A stretch of DNA of 4,739 bases from a virus (lineage: Duplodnaviria > Heunggongvirae > Uroviricota > Caudoviricetes): the IMG/VR virus record IMGVR_UViG_2778261686_000005. The stretch is one strand, 5' to 3'. Shown one piece after another: positions 1 through 4,739 of the stretch. Position numbers and translations under genes: made by a program. The notes beneath the pieces are model-generated. The model did not search any database, was not told the DNA's origin, and saw only the letters and a list, made by a program, of their open reading frames with translations. The number at the start of each line of letters is the position of its first letter. Within the stretch, counting starts at the first letter, position 1.

Positions 1-897
1 ATGCTTCCATCGGAAACGATGATCTGGCAGCCTGAGTTCACAGATAAAACACTCTCCAGGAAACCCGGGGCGGTTCACCTCCATGCTGATCCAAATAGTT
101 ACTTTAGTGTTCAAGAGAAGCAGCAAGGGCAGAGCATTGCACAGCAGAACGCAGATACATCTGCATATAATGCTCAGGTTAATGCGGAACAGGGTAATCG
201 GCGTCTCGATATGGAGCAGTTCAAAGTCCTATCCGATAACCAACTACGCACGAGAGAAATGGTTCTGAAAGCACGACTTGGACGTGCTCAAAATGACATC
301 GAGAGAGACAAGCTCAATGCTGAACTGAGCAAGGTACAGCAGGCGAAAGTGGAGAAGATGAACGATAAAATTAATACTGTTACAGGTAACATCGACTCCT
401 TGAACTCTGCGCTTGAAGTGGGTCATGAACTGGCGGGAATTGTAGGGAAACATCCTTCGGCCGTTACCCGCTCGCAGAACTATAACCCCCTGACGCTGGG
501 GTTTGGATTCCTTCCTGATGTAGCAGAAGACACACGAAGCCTACGCGCCAAAGCTGATGAATACAACCTAAAGGTTATTCTGCCTAGCCTCAAAGGGACT
601 TTTGGCTCTAACCCAACCGAAGGGGAAAGGGCTGCCCTTATGCAATCTCAAAATGGCATTAAGTCAGCAACCAGCAATGAGGCATTTTTGCGAGAGTTGA
701 ATAAAGCGCAGGACGTAATTATTCGAATGCAGAAACGACAGATTGCCGGGCTCGGTATTCCTGTAACCAAATCAAAGGACGAAGAAACTGATACCAAAAT
801 GCTGTTGCAGGATCCTTCACTGGTTAAGGATTATGTGACCGCACATGGCTATCTGCCGGAAAGTTACTATCAGGCAAAACTTAAGGGATGGCAATGA
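1..897 (+). CDS. Phage internal virion / ejection (DNA-transfer) protein, C-terminal portion; probably 5'-truncated by the window edge
   Basis: The frame is open from base 1 to TGA at 895-897 (298 codons) with coding-like composition. It contains a charged helical, coiled-coil-like stretch (LKARLGRAQNDIERDKLNAELSKVQQAKVEKMNDKINTVTGNIDSL). Its stop overlaps the start of the next gene. The ATG at 1-3 is probably internal, with the true start upstream of the window. The product is inferred only from its position immediately upstream of the SLT-domain protein (the gp15/gp20-like position in podovirus ejection-protein operons); I see no catalytic motif. Confidence 0.7.
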   Translation: MLPSETMIWQPEFTDKTLSRKPGAVHLHADPNSYFSVQEKQQGQSIAQQNADTSAYNAQVNAEQGNRRLDMEQFKVLSDNQLRTREMVLKARLGRAQNDIERDKLNAELSKVQQAKVEKMNDKINTVTGNIDSLNSALEVGHELAGIVGKHPSAVTRSQNYNPLTLGFGFLPDVAEDTRSLRAKADEYNLKVILPSLKGTFGSNPTEGERAALMQSQNGIKSATSNEAFLRELNKAQDVIIRMQKRQIAGLGIPVTKSKDEETDTKMLLQDPSLVKDYVTAHGYLPESYYQAKLKGWQ

Positions 898-3614
898 TGG
901 CACAACTGACAGAAAAACAGAAAGCCTATTCCCGTCATCTCGATGAAAAATATGGTTTCCCATCAGGGACGATGGAAACATTAGTTGGCAATGAATCTAG
1001 TGGTAACGGAAGTGCCGAGTCACCGAAAGGAGCTAGAGGATTTGCTCAACTGATGCCCTCAGTAATGAGTGATGCTGGTTATCGTGGAACTGATCCGCGC
1101 TCACTGCCATTTGAAAAGCAAATGGATATCGCAGCAAACCATCTCAATAAAGGAATGAAGCGATTTGGTGATATAGGTATGGCATTGGCTGGGTATAATT
1201 CTGGCTATGCTCGTATTAATGCCGTCAGAAACGGTAAATCTACACTGCCAGATGAAACGGCTAATTACGTAAGTAAATTTGCAGATGCCGGAATAATCCC
1301 TGATGACAGTGAAATCTTGCAGTTTGCACAAACCAGTCAACATCGCAATCTTCAGCAGCCTGACTACTCGGAGCTGGATAAAGAAATCTCTCAGGTGGGA
1401 GATATTTCTGCATGGGAAGCAAAACGTCAGCAATTTAAGAACATAGAAGCAGGACTACCAACAGCCAGTTCATGGGAGCAGAAAAGAGCTCAGTTTCTCG
1501 CCGATGAAAATGCCGGGGAACCGCAGCAGCAAGTAGCCAAGTCTAACCTTAATCCTGAGATGGAATATCTTTCGCCAGGACTGAAAGCTGCGCCAGAGCA
1601 GATGGCCAGAGGGATTGCTAATATACCGTTTGATGTAATGGACGCAGGCGTGGGGGTAGTCAATGCGGCGCAATCAGCCGGAGCATGGGCAGCTCAGAAG
1701 CTTGGTGTGGGTGATGGCACATACACGCCCATATCACCTGTCTTTCGCCCAGTAGACCAACCTACAGATCCATACGCGCAGGCTGGTGAGCAGCTAGCAC
1801 CTTACCTTATTACAGGATTAGGCGCAGGAAAGGCAGCTACCGCAGCTTCTTCAGTTGCCAACGCTCCACGTGCTGAACGTGCGGCCACAAAGGTGGCTAG
1901 TATGTTGGCAGAAAACCTGCCAGGTACATTGGTGAACGCCCAAAAGAACGGGCAGATCAGCCCAGAAGACCTAGCAAAAGAGACAGGTATTGGCCTAGCA
2001 GGATCGCTAGGAGCACGCGCTTTAATAAAGAGCGGACAGACAGCCAGTGACGTAATGCGAGATGTATTGCGGAGTAATACAAATCAATCAGGCCATGTGT
2101 TAGGGGCAGCAAATACTCTGGAAACCGCCAATGATGTATCGAAAGCAGCGCGTTCTGCCGTAGGCCGAGAGCATATCGCATCGCAGGCATCAAACGTCAG
2201 AGATGATGTCGCTAAGGCGGCGAAAATCACTGGTATTAATATCAACACCCTGACGCCTGGAATGCGCTCAGGTAGTCGTGGAATTGCCCAAGCAGAAGGT
2301 GTTCTGGCATCAACTCCTGGGAATGTTCAGGATGCTCACCTTACGGCCTTCAATGAAATATCCTCAAAGTTGAATAAGCAGTTGTCTGATTTCGGTGCTG
2401 AGTCTGGAAGCGCATCAGAAAAAAGCGCAGCAATTAAAGAGCGCATCATCGCGAGCCTCAGTGATATGAAAACAGCAGAGAATATGGCATGGGCAGAACT
2501 GCGAAGCACGATGCCACGCGAAAGGATGAAAATGAGTAATGGGATGGCTGTCGTCCAAGCAGAAAAAGCAGCCAATGTTCCACTCAGCCCGGAGATGAAA
2601 CAGTTTCAGGCTGCCAACAACCAAGGTGGCGGCATAACCTTCGACGGGATGAAGGCATGGCGTGCTAAGTTTGCTGATGCTGAACAAGCAAACACCCGGG
2701 CAGGTAAGGCCAATGCCGCCCGGATTGCCGGAGAAATGCGCAGAGCTATCACTGATGACATGCGCATCATGGCTGAAAAAGGAAACTTCCTCACAGAATG
2801 GCAGAAAGCTAACGATCTCTCTAAAAGTTACATTATCGCCAAACAAAATGCCGAATCTGTTTTTGGTCGAGATCTCGCATCAGACGCTATGGTAAGAAAA
2901 GGTGCCGATACGCTTAAGGCATCCGCAAATACTGGAACGGGAGCTTTTCACCGCCTTATCTCCGCGCTGCCGGAAGCAGAACGCCAACCAGCAATAGCAT
3001 CTATTCTTCAGCATGCTGTGGCGCAGGGAGAGAAGGGAGGAATCGGTGAAGAGTCTGGTATCCAGTATTTTGCCAAGCTCATGACCCAGCAGAATGTAAA
3101 CGCCATCAGTCGTCATGCGCCAGATCTCGGTAGAATGATGAAAGAGTTCGGTGTACTCGCTAAAGCCAGCACCAGACCGCAGCGATACGTAGAGCGCACG
3201 GGAAGAACAACTGAGGCTCTCAAAACGCTCGATTCAGGCCTTCCAAAGATCGTCGGTGTGATTATGAACGGAGTTCAACAGTCAGGTGCGATCGCTGGAG
3301 GCTTTGGCGGTGGTGTAATTGGTTCGATTAGTGGTTTGGTTGCTGGTGGCGCACTGAGAAATACTGTGGCTAAGATTGGGGCGACAAGAAGTGGTCGATA
3401 TGCGATAGAGAAAGCCGTTCAGGAAGCTACAAAAGCAGTGCGCGCAGGGGCATCACCAGCAGCGATCGCCGCAGCAGAGAAACGATTTTCGGCCAATAAA
3501 ATTGCCATGAAAGCAATTCGTGATGCCGTTGGGGCTGAAGAATTCGTGAAACTGACAAGGGCCGGGATTGTAGCTACCCTCAGTGGCATGAAAGATGTTA
3601 GCGAATGGGAATAG
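888..3614 (+). CDS. Phage internal virion / DNA-injection protein with N-terminal lytic transglycosylase (SLT) domain
   Basis: 908-codon ORF ending at TAG 3612-3614. The N-terminus carries a family-1 lytic transglycosylase signature: a Glu-Ser pair (E36-S37, nt 993-998) in VGNESSGNGSAESPKGARGFAQLMPS, followed by ALAGYNSGYARI (the A-Y-N-x-G motif, Y103-N104 at nt 1194-1199). The body is Ala/Gln/Glu-rich and probably helical. Gly-rich hydrophobic segments occur mid-protein (PYLITGLGAGKAATAAS, GIGLAGSLGARALI) and near the C-terminus. Start is ambiguous: the SD-like AAGGG at 883-887 abuts ATG 888 but is well spaced for ATG 894 or 897, so the true start is more likely 894 or 897. Confidence 0.88.
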   Translation: MAMMAQLTEKQKAYSRHLDEKYGFPSGTMETLVGNESSGNGSAESPKGARGFAQLMPSVMSDAGYRGTDPRSLPFEKQMDIAANHLNKGMKRFGDIGMALAGYNSGYARINAVRNGKSTLPDETANYVSKFADAGIIPDDSEILQFAQTSQHRNLQQPDYSELDKEISQVGDISAWEAKRQQFKNIEAGLPTASSWEQKRAQFLADENAGEPQQQVAKSNLNPEMEYLSPGLKAAPEQMARGIANIPFDVMDAGVGVVNAAQSAGAWAAQKLGVGDGTYTPISPVFRPVDQPTDPYAQAGEQLAPYLITGLGAGKAATAASSVANAPRAERAATKVASMLAENLPGTLVNAQKNGQISPEDLAKETGIGLAGSLGARALIKSGQTASDVMRDVLRSNTNQSGHVLGAANTLETANDVSKAARSAVGREHIASQASNVRDDVAKAAKITGININTLTPGMRSGSRGIAQAEGVLASTPGNVQDAHLTAFNEISSKLNKQLSDFGAESGSASEKSAAIKERIIASLSDMKTAENMAWAELRSTMPRERMKMSNGMAVVQAEKAANVPLSPEMKQFQAANNQGGGITFDGMKAWRAKFADAEQANTRAGKANAARIAGEMRRAITDDMRIMAEKGNFLTEWQKANDLSKSYIIAKQNAESVFGRDLASDAMVRKGADTLKASANTGTGAFHRLISALPEAERQPAIASILQHAVAQGEKGGIGEESGIQYFAKLMTQQNVNAISRHAPDLGRMMKEFGVLAKASTRPQRYVERTGRTTEALKTLDSGLPKIVGVIMNGVQQSGAIAGGFGGGVIGSISGLVAGGALRNTVAKIGATRSGRYAIEKAVQEATKAVRAGASPAAIAAAEKRFSANKIAMKAIRDAVGAEEFVKLTRAGIVATLSGMKDVSEWE
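960..1262 (+). other. Lytic transglycosylase (SLT, family 1-like) catalytic domain within the 888..3614 CDS (approximate boundaries)
   Basis: Motif order E-S ... G-A-x-G-F-A-Q-L-M ... A-G-Y-N-S-G matches the conserved order of family-1 LT motifs (catalytic Glu-Ser, a G-L-M-Q-like block, A-Y-N-x-G). Boundaries were estimated by eye, not from an alignment. Confidence 0.7.
3249..3356 (+). other. Glycine-zipper-like hydrophobic segment (putative membrane-insertion region) near the C-terminus of the SLT-domain protein
   Basis: Residues ~788-823 read IVGVIMNGVQQSGAIAGGFGGGVIGSISGLVAGGAL. This is a long uncharged stretch with repeated small-x-x-x-small spacing, typical of membrane-inserting or channel-forming helices. 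Confidence 0.5.
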
Positions 3615-3764
3615 ACGCTCTAACTAACAAAACCATAATAGCCAAGGACGGCATACTGATATTGAGCCAACTATAAAAATTCCATATCACATTACGAGCC
3701 TGTGGCTTACATTCGCTTACAGTGATGATAATTTATAACCACGCAATTCTTAGGTGAGATTGTC
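3615..3764 (+). promoter_or_regulatory. AT-rich intergenic region with putative promoter and ribosome-binding site for the lipoprotein gene
   Basis: 150-bp non-coding spacer, visibly AT-richer than the flanking structural gene. A strong SD AGGTGA at 3752-3757 sits 7 nt before ATG 3765. Candidate -10-like hexamers are GATAAT (3727-3732), TATAAC (3734-3739) and TATAAA (3672-3677); a weak -35-like TTGAGC (3662-3667) lies 17 nt before TATCAC (3685-3690). I could not find a -35/-10 pair with a convincing consensus match, so the promoter position is uncertain. Confidence 0.3.
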
Positions 3765-3815
3765 ATGATTAAAAATCTTCTTTTAATATTATCCCTGTCA
3801 TTATTGGCTGGATGC
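3765..3815 (+). other. Type II (lipoprotein) signal peptide with lipobox LAGC
   Basis: Lys3 supplies the positive n-region, followed by a hydrophobic h-region (LLLILSLSLL) and the lipobox L14-A15-G16-C17. Confidence 0.8.
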
Positions 3816-4463
3816 GTACAAAAACCGTTAGTAACGGTCAATGCTTTATCCTCCGGGCAATCTGTCGGTAAGAAGTTCTTGATCATCCCCGCAAGCCAAG
3901 AACTTTGGAACACCAAACAGATTGAATACACTCAAATAGCTACGGTAGTAGCCGCCAGTTTATCAAGCCAAGGATATATACAAGTTAAAGATGAAAAATT
4001 GGCTGACCAGGTAATTCTCTTGAACTTTTTGAGAAGCGGGGCCATTTCAAATACTCGTAATGTAACCATCCCAATATACGGGCAAACTGGTGTGAGCTCA
4101 GCAACAACGTACGGAAACTCGAACACCACGTTCAATAGTTATGGTGGTGGCTACGGTACAGCTAATACCACTGGAACGGCAACAACAGTTTATACGCCTA
4201 CTTATGGAATTACTGGCGCGTATAACACAACTGTGACGGACACGTTCTACGGCGCAGGGGTGATACTCCAGTCGTTTGATGCCAAGGCTTATCTCAATAA
4301 TAGGCAGATTAATATGTTATGGAAAGTTGGTAGCTCAGTCGTCTCGCAACAGTCTGATGGAATTGCTGATTACAAAGGGTTGGCGAGAATAGCCGCTAGC
4401 TATGCCGGGAAAAATACAGAAGGTGATATAACTTTTAATGTTGACCCTAAAGCACCAAATTAA
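3765..4463 (+). CDS. Lipoprotein of unknown function (probably outer-membrane), phage accessory/moron gene; candidate superinfection-exclusion or defence factor
   Basis: 232-codon ORF with a good SD. The N-terminus MIKNLLLILSLSLLAGC is a signal peptide ending in a lipobox (L-A-G-C, Cys17 at nt 3813-3815). Residue +2 of the mature protein is Val, not Asp, which under E. coli Lol sorting rules predicts outer-membrane localisation. The gene has lower GC and AT-rich codon choice (ATA, TTA, AAA) compared with the upstream genes. A GC-rich hairpin follows the stop. I do not recognise a characterised family. Confidence 0.85.
   Translation: MIKNLLLILSLSLLAGCVQKPLVTVNALSSGQSVGKKFLIIPASQELWNTKQIEYTQIATVVAASLSSQGYIQVKDEKLADQVILLNFLRSGAISNTRNVTIPIYGQTGVSSATTYGNSNTTFNSYGGGYGTANTTGTATTVYTPTYGITGAYNTTVTDTFYGAGVILQSFDAKAYLNNRQINMLWKVGSSVVSQQSDGIADYKGLARIAASYAGKNTEGDITFNVDPKAPN
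4077..4259 (+). repeat. Low-complexity Thr/Gly/Tyr/Asn/Ser-rich segment inside the lipoprotein CDS (protein-level quasi-repeats, not a DNA tandem repeat)
   Basis: Residues ~105-165 read YGQTGVSSATTYGNSNTTFNSYGGGYGTANTTGTATTVYTPTYGITGAYNTTVTDTFYGAG. By manual count roughly 30% are Thr, with recurring T-x-Y-G / Y-G-x-T units and no charged residues except one Asp. The flanking sequence has ordinary composition. Confidence 0.6.
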
Positions 4464-4470
4464 CTAATAA

Positions 4471-4486
4471 GCCCGGTACGCCGGGC
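4471..4486 (+). terminator. GC-rich hairpin 8 nt downstream of the lipoprotein stop; possible intrinsic terminator
   Basis: GCCCGG-TACG-CCGGGC forms a perfect 6-bp all-G:C stem with a 4-nt loop. The sequence after it (ATTCATGCCCCTATTATTC) is T-containing but not a clean U-tract, so it may act as a weak terminator or an RNA-stability element. Confidence 0.35.
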
Positions 4487-4739
4487 ATTCATGCCCCTAT
4501 TATTCATGAATCGCTTTTTCTGGAAGGTATGCGACAAACGTTAAGTGACATTGCCTACACATTCGGGGCGGGATTTCAAATCCGCTCCCAGTTGATGGGG
4601 CCGTTACAGTACGCGCATATCCGCTTTATGTGAAACAGGAAGATTTTTCTGATATCACTGCCTGGATTTGCCCCTATATTTCCAGACACCTGTTATCACT
4701 TAACCCATTACTGGCCTGCTGCCGCAGATATTCCCGTGG

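Follow-up and report, generated by a model that had tools for sequence, protein, structure and literature searches.

The 4,739-nucleotide stretch of DNA analysed here (the window), filed in IMG/VR as the Caudoviricetes record IMGVR_UViG_2778261686_000005, contains on its plus strand a gene of 232 codons (positions 3765–4463) for a lipoprotein that we tentatively read as an envelope-level exclusion factor, acting on the DNA delivery of incoming short-tailed phages; we put the probability of this reading at about 0.4. The carrier of the gene is an insertion sequence (IS)-truncated copy of a phage-inducible chromosomal island (PICI) of the EcCIMP1 type. It is not a temperate podovirus prophage, as a preliminary description made from the sequence had supposed. 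EcCIMP1 is a PICI of Escherichia coli MP1 that is excised and transduced by the P22-like helper phage Kapi1 (Pick, Stadel & Raivio, ISME J 2025, PMC11773190). It adds superinfection immunity against Kapi1, and PADLOC and DefenseFinder find no defence system in it (PMC11773190). Because EcCIMP1 confers this immunity and holds no known defence system, envelope exclusion is our best guess at what the lipoprotein does, and the lipoprotein appears to be the best candidate for the unexplained immunity. The element itself is already published, and its lipoprotein gene is undiscussed. A scan with the PADLOC-DB v2 profiles for catalogued defence proteins gave no match at E ≤ 1.

The product of the gene begins MIKNLLLILSLSLLAGC. 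Residues 1–16 form a signal peptide, so that the precursor reads MIKNLLLILSLSLLAG up to the cleavage point and then C17-V18, with the lipobox LLAG/C17 and Val18 at position +2. This agrees with the pattern [LVI][ASTVI][GAS]C followed by a residue other than Asp. According to the +2 rule of E. coli, lipoproteins with a residue other than Asp at this position are sorted by the Lol system to the outer membrane. Since the residue here is Val and not Asp, outer-membrane sorting is predicted, and the sequence as a whole predicts a substrate of Lgt and of signal peptidase II (SPase II). The lipobox cysteine is kept in 165 of the 165 aligned family members. Compared with island variants 86–88% identical to it, the gene has a ratio of nonsynonymous to synonymous substitution rates (dN/dS) of ~0.04, and the adjacent gp16-like gene one of ~0.08. 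The lipoprotein gene proposed earlier, with its lipobox at Cys17, is confirmed as a real gene under strong purifying selection. The 272-amino-acid versions of the protein given by NCBI in Kluyvera and other Enterobacteriaceae (locus L009, 10001–10819) are probably mis-started, because a start at their Met41 gives a canonical signal peptide and an LAGC lipobox, and in the alignment this Met stands opposite residue 1 of the window protein.

The lipoprotein sequence has no significant family match in Pfam, PHROGs, NCBIfam or PADLOC, and its score against the Pfam model of DUF4136 (PF13590) is 11.6 bits (E = 0.39), below the gathering cutoff of 32.8 bits. However, homologues at 29–35% identity do carry PF13590: the domain is matched by 14 of 29 aligned homologues, the best with E = 1.3e-15. 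By way of these intermediate sequences, and by the fold of the solved DUF4136 member BT2437 (structure 4f54), the lipoprotein is a divergent DUF4136-type protein, whose subfamily is set apart from BT2437 by an invariant GQTG...PTYGITG hairpin. The earlier statement that no characterised family could be recognised therefore holds for direct database assignment, but the protein has thousands of relatives, most of them not from phages. A profile search at E ≤ 1e-3 collected 3,843 clusters at 50% identity, with members in Desulfobulbus, Nitrospirae, Akkermansia, Kiritimatiellia, Planctomycetes, Leptospira, Photobacterium, Nitrosospira, Chlamydiae and others. A full-text literature search for DUF4136 found no paper that gives the domain a function. 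No meaningful match to the lipoprotein was found among PDB sequences, with either the single sequence or the profile, a fold search of BFVD returned nothing at E ≤ 0.001, and tblastn found no homologue in PLSDB plasmids.

The AlphaFold2 model of the lipoprotein (pLDDT, the predicted local distance difference test score, 85.6) consists of an alpha/beta core of DUF4136/LptE-like type and a very long beta-hairpin (strands 82–124 and 132–172) that projects from it. As modelled, the core has the fold of the ring-forming outer-membrane lipoproteins PelC, TraT, CsgG and LptE. Foldseek matched the model to TraT with a probability of 0.82–0.90, and the combination of an LptE-like core with an extending beta-hairpin, which characterises the TraT-type architecture, is present in the lipoprotein. 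The best-conserved part of the protein is its central region, which is rich in Gly, Thr, Tyr and Asn and low-complexity in appearance. The invariant residues are P103, G106-Q-T-G109, T115, G117, G127, T141 and P145-T-Y-G-I-T-G151, and the two invariant motifs face one another across the modelled hairpin. The Thr/Gly/Tyr-rich, uncharged part of the hairpin comprises approximately residues 96–165, and in the alignment of 165 sequences residues 99–163 are essentially uncharged. Foldseek also matched the hairpin, with low TM-scores, to the stems of beta-pore-forming toxins in the pore state. At the hairpin tip (residues 122–125 and 129–133) the phage and PICI clade has about 9–10 residues that are missing from most of the wider family (column occupancy 0.12–0.22), possibly a clade-specific, surface-exposed specificity region. 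Two other identities were considered and rejected: a spanin, because the protein is a globular one of 232 amino acids with no C-terminal hydrophobic segment and there are no lysis genes in the island, and a lysozyme inhibitor, on account of the architecture and of the lack of a supporting structural match.

Under the exclusion reading, the lipoprotein would oligomerise to a ring at the outer membrane, and the hairpins would form a beta-barrel-like collar in or on that membrane. In a cell that carries the satellite or a prophage, such a ring would hinder the DNA-delivery step of incoming short-tailed phages at the outer membrane or in the periplasm, that is, penetration by the needle or the ejection proteins, or assembly of the gp7/gp20/gp16 conduit. 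The lipoprotein would then be an outer-membrane counterpart of the inner-membrane protein SieA and a functional analogue of TraT surface exclusion. A more far-reaching version, in which a widespread family of ring-forming lipoproteins builds a lipid-anchored beta-barrel from the GQTG...PTYGITG hairpin, and in which a PICI family and temperate podoviruses have repeatedly co-opted one branch to exclude phages at the outer membrane by blocking the ejection conduit, which would explain the EcCIMP1 immunity, is doubtful when taken as a whole.

The genomic position of the close relatives is consistent with a role in phage entry. Within the close subclade the gene is always found 3′ of whichever ejection or internal-virion gene comes last, both in the PICI and in podovirus modules of three types. 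A homologue of 62% identity in Serratia surfactantfaciens belongs to a genuine P22-like prophage with the order coat, gp4, gp10, gp26, gp14, gp7, gp20, gp16, lipoprotein, arc (reverse strand) and tailspike. The slot between gene 16 and the tailspike gene holds sieA in P22 (PMC10883804), and nothing occupies it in phage Dewey, whose gp16 ranks with the nearest full-length relatives of the gp16-like protein. The preliminary description had suspected an accessory locus of the sieA type, and the position of the Serratia homologue, between gene 16 and arc/tailspike, together with the empty slot in Dewey, bears this out. In Serratia nevei and in an IMG/VR contig (34–38% identity), the gene comes after a module of phrog_992, phrog_1145 and phrog_684 and before the tailspike gene, and in two further viral contigs the gene before it encodes a T7-like internal-virion protein that includes an endolysin domain (phrog_1044, phrog_342). 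Degraded prophages have kept the gene beside remnants of the same virion genes. The islands of enterobacteria (E. coli, Kluyvera, Pluralibacter and others) always have the lipoprotein gene after the gp16-like gene, and differ in the genes farther downstream. The two neighbours occur in practically the same number of E. coli genomes (73–74 for the gp16 allele and 74 for the lipoprotein) and co-diverge, with amino-acid identities (lipoprotein/gp16-like protein) of 88/84, 86/83 and 62/53%. When the neighbouring genes of 50 loci, viral and genomic, were clustered all-versus-all, no conserved operon partner emerged outside the phage clade. Inspection of the homologue neighbourhoods, which had been proposed earlier as a check, thus places the close subclade consistently after ejection or virion genes but most of the wider family in chromosomes. 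A more distant relative (29% identity) in Vibrio fluvialis (JAHUCC010000032.1, locus L007, 8536–10708) lies 185 nt downstream of a gene for the defence reverse transcriptase Drt2 (PADLOC, E = 3.5e-207), in an integrase-bounded island with KilA-N, RNase H and resolvase genes as well.

The distance from the upstream gene differs by lineage (−1, 11, 62, 77 or 150–167 nt), and in most of these lineages AGGTGA or GGGTGA precedes the start. In the S. nevei prophage (locus L005, 10001) the start of the lipoprotein gene overlaps the stop of the gene for a 921-amino-acid virion protein (TAATG), and in the two contigs with T7-like modules (loci L017 and L019, 7989–8001) the gap is 11 nt, which points to translational coupling or co-transcription with the late structural genes in those phages. 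This spacing, the conserved Shine-Dalgarno sequence, the co-divergence with the gp16-like gene and the resemblance of the hairpin to the stems of beta-pore-forming toxins would all suit a late-expressed factor for the lytic cycle of the phage or satellite itself, which would mask the receptors or surface of the infected cell and its debris, or destabilise the outer membrane at lysis. The lipoprotein Llp of T5 masks its receptor so that the progeny do not eject into dead cells. However, the S. nevei locus has holin and lysozyme genes (by Pfam) downstream, followed by small unannotated open reading frames, so that lysis functions appear to be provided separately there; PICIs depend on the helper for lysis; and a spacer of 77–167 nt precedes the gene in the PICI and in the P22-like prophage. 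The variant that protects the progeny is, moreover, really a subtype of exclusion. We consider a late lytic factor distinctly unlikely.

The identification of the carrier rests on long, nearly exact identity. Homology to the island spans the window from positions 76–79 to 4662; over positions 76–4662 the match to E. coli 214-4 is exact (100%), and some 70 further complete E. coli genomes match this segment at 99.7% identity, among them that of strain MP1, in which the counterpart of positions 79–4662 lies inside EcCIMP1. In 214-4 and NGF1 the segment is part of an island of ~19–20 kb, with the order integrase, AlpA-type helix-turn-helix (HTH) protein, AntA/B antirepressor, DUF4222, Ash, small open reading frames, TOPRIM/DUF927 primase, DUF2824, gp7-like, gp20-like, SLT-gp16-like, lipoprotein, reverse-strand HTH protein (AlpA_1) and PerC-like regulator. 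Capsid, terminase, portal, tail and lysis genes are absent from the islands of these two strains. A size of about 20 kb, an integrase, an AlpA-type protein and a primase, the lack of capsid, terminase and tail genes, and near-identity to the published element together place the island among the EcCIMP1-type PICIs. The islands of 214-4 and NGF1 share their gene order with EcCIMP1; the copy in the window differs in that an IS3-family element truncates it at either end.

The host strains of the island are gut and extraintestinal isolates, and islands of this type also hold other cargo that is directed at the host, for instance the PerC-like regulator (PMC11773190). Both facts could favour a lysogenic-conversion or host-fitness envelope factor that has nothing to do with phage entry, in which the ring alters serum resistance, the barrier or vesiculation and is kept for the benefit of the host. 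The fold points in the same direction, in that it resembles that of TraT; TraT and the Bor protein of lambda confer resistance to complement and serum. So does the wider family, which is mostly chromosomal, phylum-wide and highly conserved, suggesting an envelope role of a housekeeping type. However, deletion of EcCIMP1 leaves growth unaltered, whether in laboratory media or in media that mimic the gut, and the fitness benefit of the island depends on Kapi1 (PMC11773190). A pure host-fitness role also fails to explain why the gene is repeatedly placed right behind the ejection genes of three types of podovirus module, and we regard such a role as rather unlikely.

Several observations weigh against exclusion as the function of the lipoprotein. 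The earlier suggestion of an exclusion or defence role is reasonable in view of the immunity phenotype of EcCIMP1, but EcCIMP1 leaves the infection of non-lysogens by Kapi1 unaffected and the helper titres unreduced (PMC11773190), which makes a simple or strong constitutive block of Kapi1 unlikely; and the lipoprotein gene is nowhere mentioned in the paper on EcCIMP1 or its supplements (PMC11773190). The coupling to late virion genes in some phages would mean lytic, not lysogenic, expression there. The family is mostly chromosomal or otherwise non-phage and lacks conserved neighbours, which argues that its ancestral role was not phage exclusion, and tblastn found no homologue of the lipoprotein in 50,697 sequenced phage records. 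Strong purifying selection, together with motifs that are invariant across phyla, is unusual for a protein engaged in an arms race. On the structural side, the assembly of a ring and the insertion of the hairpin into the membrane are features that we infer from the model; when the hairpin was examined for the pattern of a classical transmembrane beta-barrel, strand B showed Thr on one face and Tyr/Ile on the other in alternation, and the 'outer' face proved only weakly hydrophobic. Membership in the TraT family (PF05818) was rejected: there is no PF05818 match, and the hhalign probability of 85% obtained with the signal peptides included fell to 14% when they were trimmed, a collapse that marks the match as a signal-peptide artefact. 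The likeness to TraT (PDB 9e2v, 9fs5 and 9fsm) is accordingly one at the level of the fold only.

Around the lipoprotein gene, the 150-nt intergenic spacer (3615–3764, plus strand; 38% G+C) holds the Shine-Dalgarno sequence AGGTGA (3752–3757), 7 nt 5′ of the ATG. On the same strand, the hairpin GCCCGG-tacg-CCGGGC (4471–4486), with six G-C pairs and a 4-nt loop, starts 7 nt past the stop; its local fold has −16.4 kcal/mol (z = −3.2). Because the 3′ tail contains no clean U-tract, the hairpin is possibly a weak, perhaps bidirectional, terminator candidate and no stronger one. The G+C content of the lipoprotein gene is 42.3%, compared with 49.6% in the upstream gene of 908 codons. The ribosome-binding site, the AT-rich spacer, the lower G+C content and the hairpin were all reported in the preliminary description and are found again here. 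Its claim of a different codon choice stands for the Leu codons, which do differ between the two genes, but not for the G+C content at third codon positions (GC3), which is the same (0.40 versus 0.41); the fall in G+C content and the apparent change in codon choice are thus mostly an effect of amino-acid composition. Promoter-like sigma-70 matches in the spacer number three, compared with 3.2 expected by chance from shuffled sequence. The ~70 nt nearest the start (3695–3764; …cttacattcgcttacagtgatgataatttataaccac…) are conserved among the island variants, although the synonymous sites of these variants are saturated, which suggests a regulatory element; no strong sigma-70 consensus was found in this part. 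The description of the gene as a phage moron agrees with the variable slot (empty in Dewey and occupied by sieA in P22), the lower G+C content and the hairpin, but not with promoter matches at the level of chance or with the unchanged GC3. Nor does it look like a free-floating moron: in every island found it lies beside the gp16-like gene and diverges with it, and in other phages it is tightly coupled to the preceding gene.

The window begins with the terminal sequence of the IS3-family element IS629 (1–78); about 180 phage records contain IS629 ends that match positions 1–80. The C-terminal ~274 codons of a gene for a gp20-like DNA ejection protein follow (76–897, plus strand); the intact protein has 439 amino acids and is annotated as 'phage DNA ejection protein' in 214-4 and NGF1, and the open reading frame listed at 1–897 is a chimera that starts inside the IS629 end. 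Next comes the gene for the 908-amino-acid gp16-like DNA transfer protein with an N-terminal SLT domain (888–3614, plus strand). Downstream of the lipoprotein gene, the start of the next open reading frame of the island (4630–4662, plus strand; a 104-amino-acid hypothetical protein in 214-4, at 21016–21330 of that locus) is cut by the end of a second IS3-family element (4663–4739), which gives 100% matches under 'IS3 family transposase' features and occurs in 3,542 of 5,426 E. coli genomes. Among the 5,426 complete E. coli genomes there is not one with these junctions between the two IS elements and the island, so that the window probably comes from an IS-rich strain outside that collection. 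With the gp20-like gene truncated by IS629 and the downstream frame cut by another IS, the lipoprotein gene could be regarded as a hitch-hiking remnant that has no current role in this genome, where the disrupted island has recently begun to decay. Its reading frame is, however, intact and 100% identical in nucleotides to the copy in 214-4, whose island has no such insertions, and the dN/dS of ~0.04 across island variants speaks of constraint; a remnant, which would in any case concern this copy alone and not the family, is highly unlikely.

The genes that precede the lipoprotein gene are those for DNA injection, as had been stated earlier: the gp20-like gene and then the gp16-like gene, whose product has an SLT domain (PF01464) at residues 17–119 (E = 1.1e-12) and matches phrog_770, 'DNA transfer protein', with E = 1.8e-120. 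Homologous loci carry PF26808 (P22_gp16), PF16928 (Inj_translocase, gp20), P22_gp7 and DUF2824. The gp16-like protein is 46–52% identical to the gp16 proteins of Dewey, CUS-3, epsilon34 and HK620. Among the matches listed, those of Dewey and Huey align with it from residue 21 (46.7% identity) and that of CurroJimenez_Bas106 from residue 133, and those of CUS-3, epsilon34, HK620 and others align only from residues 177–271 onward. It had been proposed that the lipoprotein inhibits, from the periplasmic side, the lytic transglycosylase domain of injected proteins, an idea for which the action of T4 Spackle on gp5 is a precedent. All three module types that precede the gene do hold a peptidoglycan-hydrolase domain, namely SLT (gp16-like), transglycosylase/endolysin (phrog_992) and endolysin (phrog_342). 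However, such domains are common in the ejection proteins of podoviruses, so that their co-occurrence with the lipoprotein says little; no structural match was named as a lysozyme or transglycosylase inhibitor; and conservation is highest in a long hairpin of the sort seen in oligomeric barrels, not in an inhibitor loop. An inhibitor of this kind now seems very improbable.

The EcCIMP1-type PICIs hold a complete P22-type ejection module, comprising DUF2824/gp14, P22_gp7, Inj_translocase/gp20 and SLT + P22_gp16 (76–3614 in the window, 14832–20000 in the 214-4 and NGF1 loci, and also in loci L008–L012). A full module without capsid, terminase or tail genes suggests that the satellite brings its own DNA-delivery proteins into helper virions. 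The ejection genes of EcCIMP1 have been treated as possible packaging genes (PMC11773190); alternatively, the satellite module may replace the ejection proteins of the helper, for example bypassing exclusion of the SieA type. Satellites with an ejection-protein module of their own are poorly understood.

If the exclusion reading is true, the lipoprotein would represent a new family of envelope anti-phage proteins that counter, at the outer membrane, the delivery of podovirus DNA. It would explain the superinfection immunity of EcCIMP1 at the level of a gene, and would give a first function to a subfamily of DUF4136 type that numbers more than 3,800 sequence clusters spread over diderm phyla. 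As a candidate for the published phenotype, the gene is concrete and cheap to test. Whatever the function, an LptE/TraT-like core with an invariant, charge-free hairpin of 60 residues makes a good structural target.

Phage lipoproteins that act at the envelope against incoming phages include T5 Llp, Cor of phi80 and N15, and Ltp of TP-J34, the genes of which are found close to those for tail or receptor-binding proteins. Two of them, Llp and Cor, are small and block FhuA. The lipoprotein of the window has no relation to Llp, Cor or Ltp in sequence or fold, as judged from PHROG, tblastn against the 50,697 phages and BFVD, and no receptor is implicated in its case. PelC, CsgG and LptE share no sequence homology with it and it has no associated secretion or transport partner genes; oligomerisation is here a prediction. 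With SieA of P22, which targets the gp16/gp20 ejection conduit (PMC10883804), the likeness is one of position only: both genes occupy the slot between gene 16 and the tailspike gene in P22-like prophages, whereas SieA, a ~19-kDa protein of the inner membrane, has no lipobox and is unrelated in sequence. TraT is a surface-exclusion lipoprotein of F-like plasmids that also confers complement resistance, and the lipoprotein of the window resembles it in architecture and in the logic of co-option by a mobile element. In TraT, transmembrane helices and a long beta-hairpin extend from an LptE-like core, and the protein forms a decamer (PMC12658005, PMC11733297). TraT is anchored by these amphipathic transmembrane alpha-helices, whereas the central insertion of the lipoprotein is modelled as all-beta, uncharged and free of helices. 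Envelope lipoproteins that exclude incoming DNA are of a known kind, but the hairpin architecture modelled here would be unprecedented.

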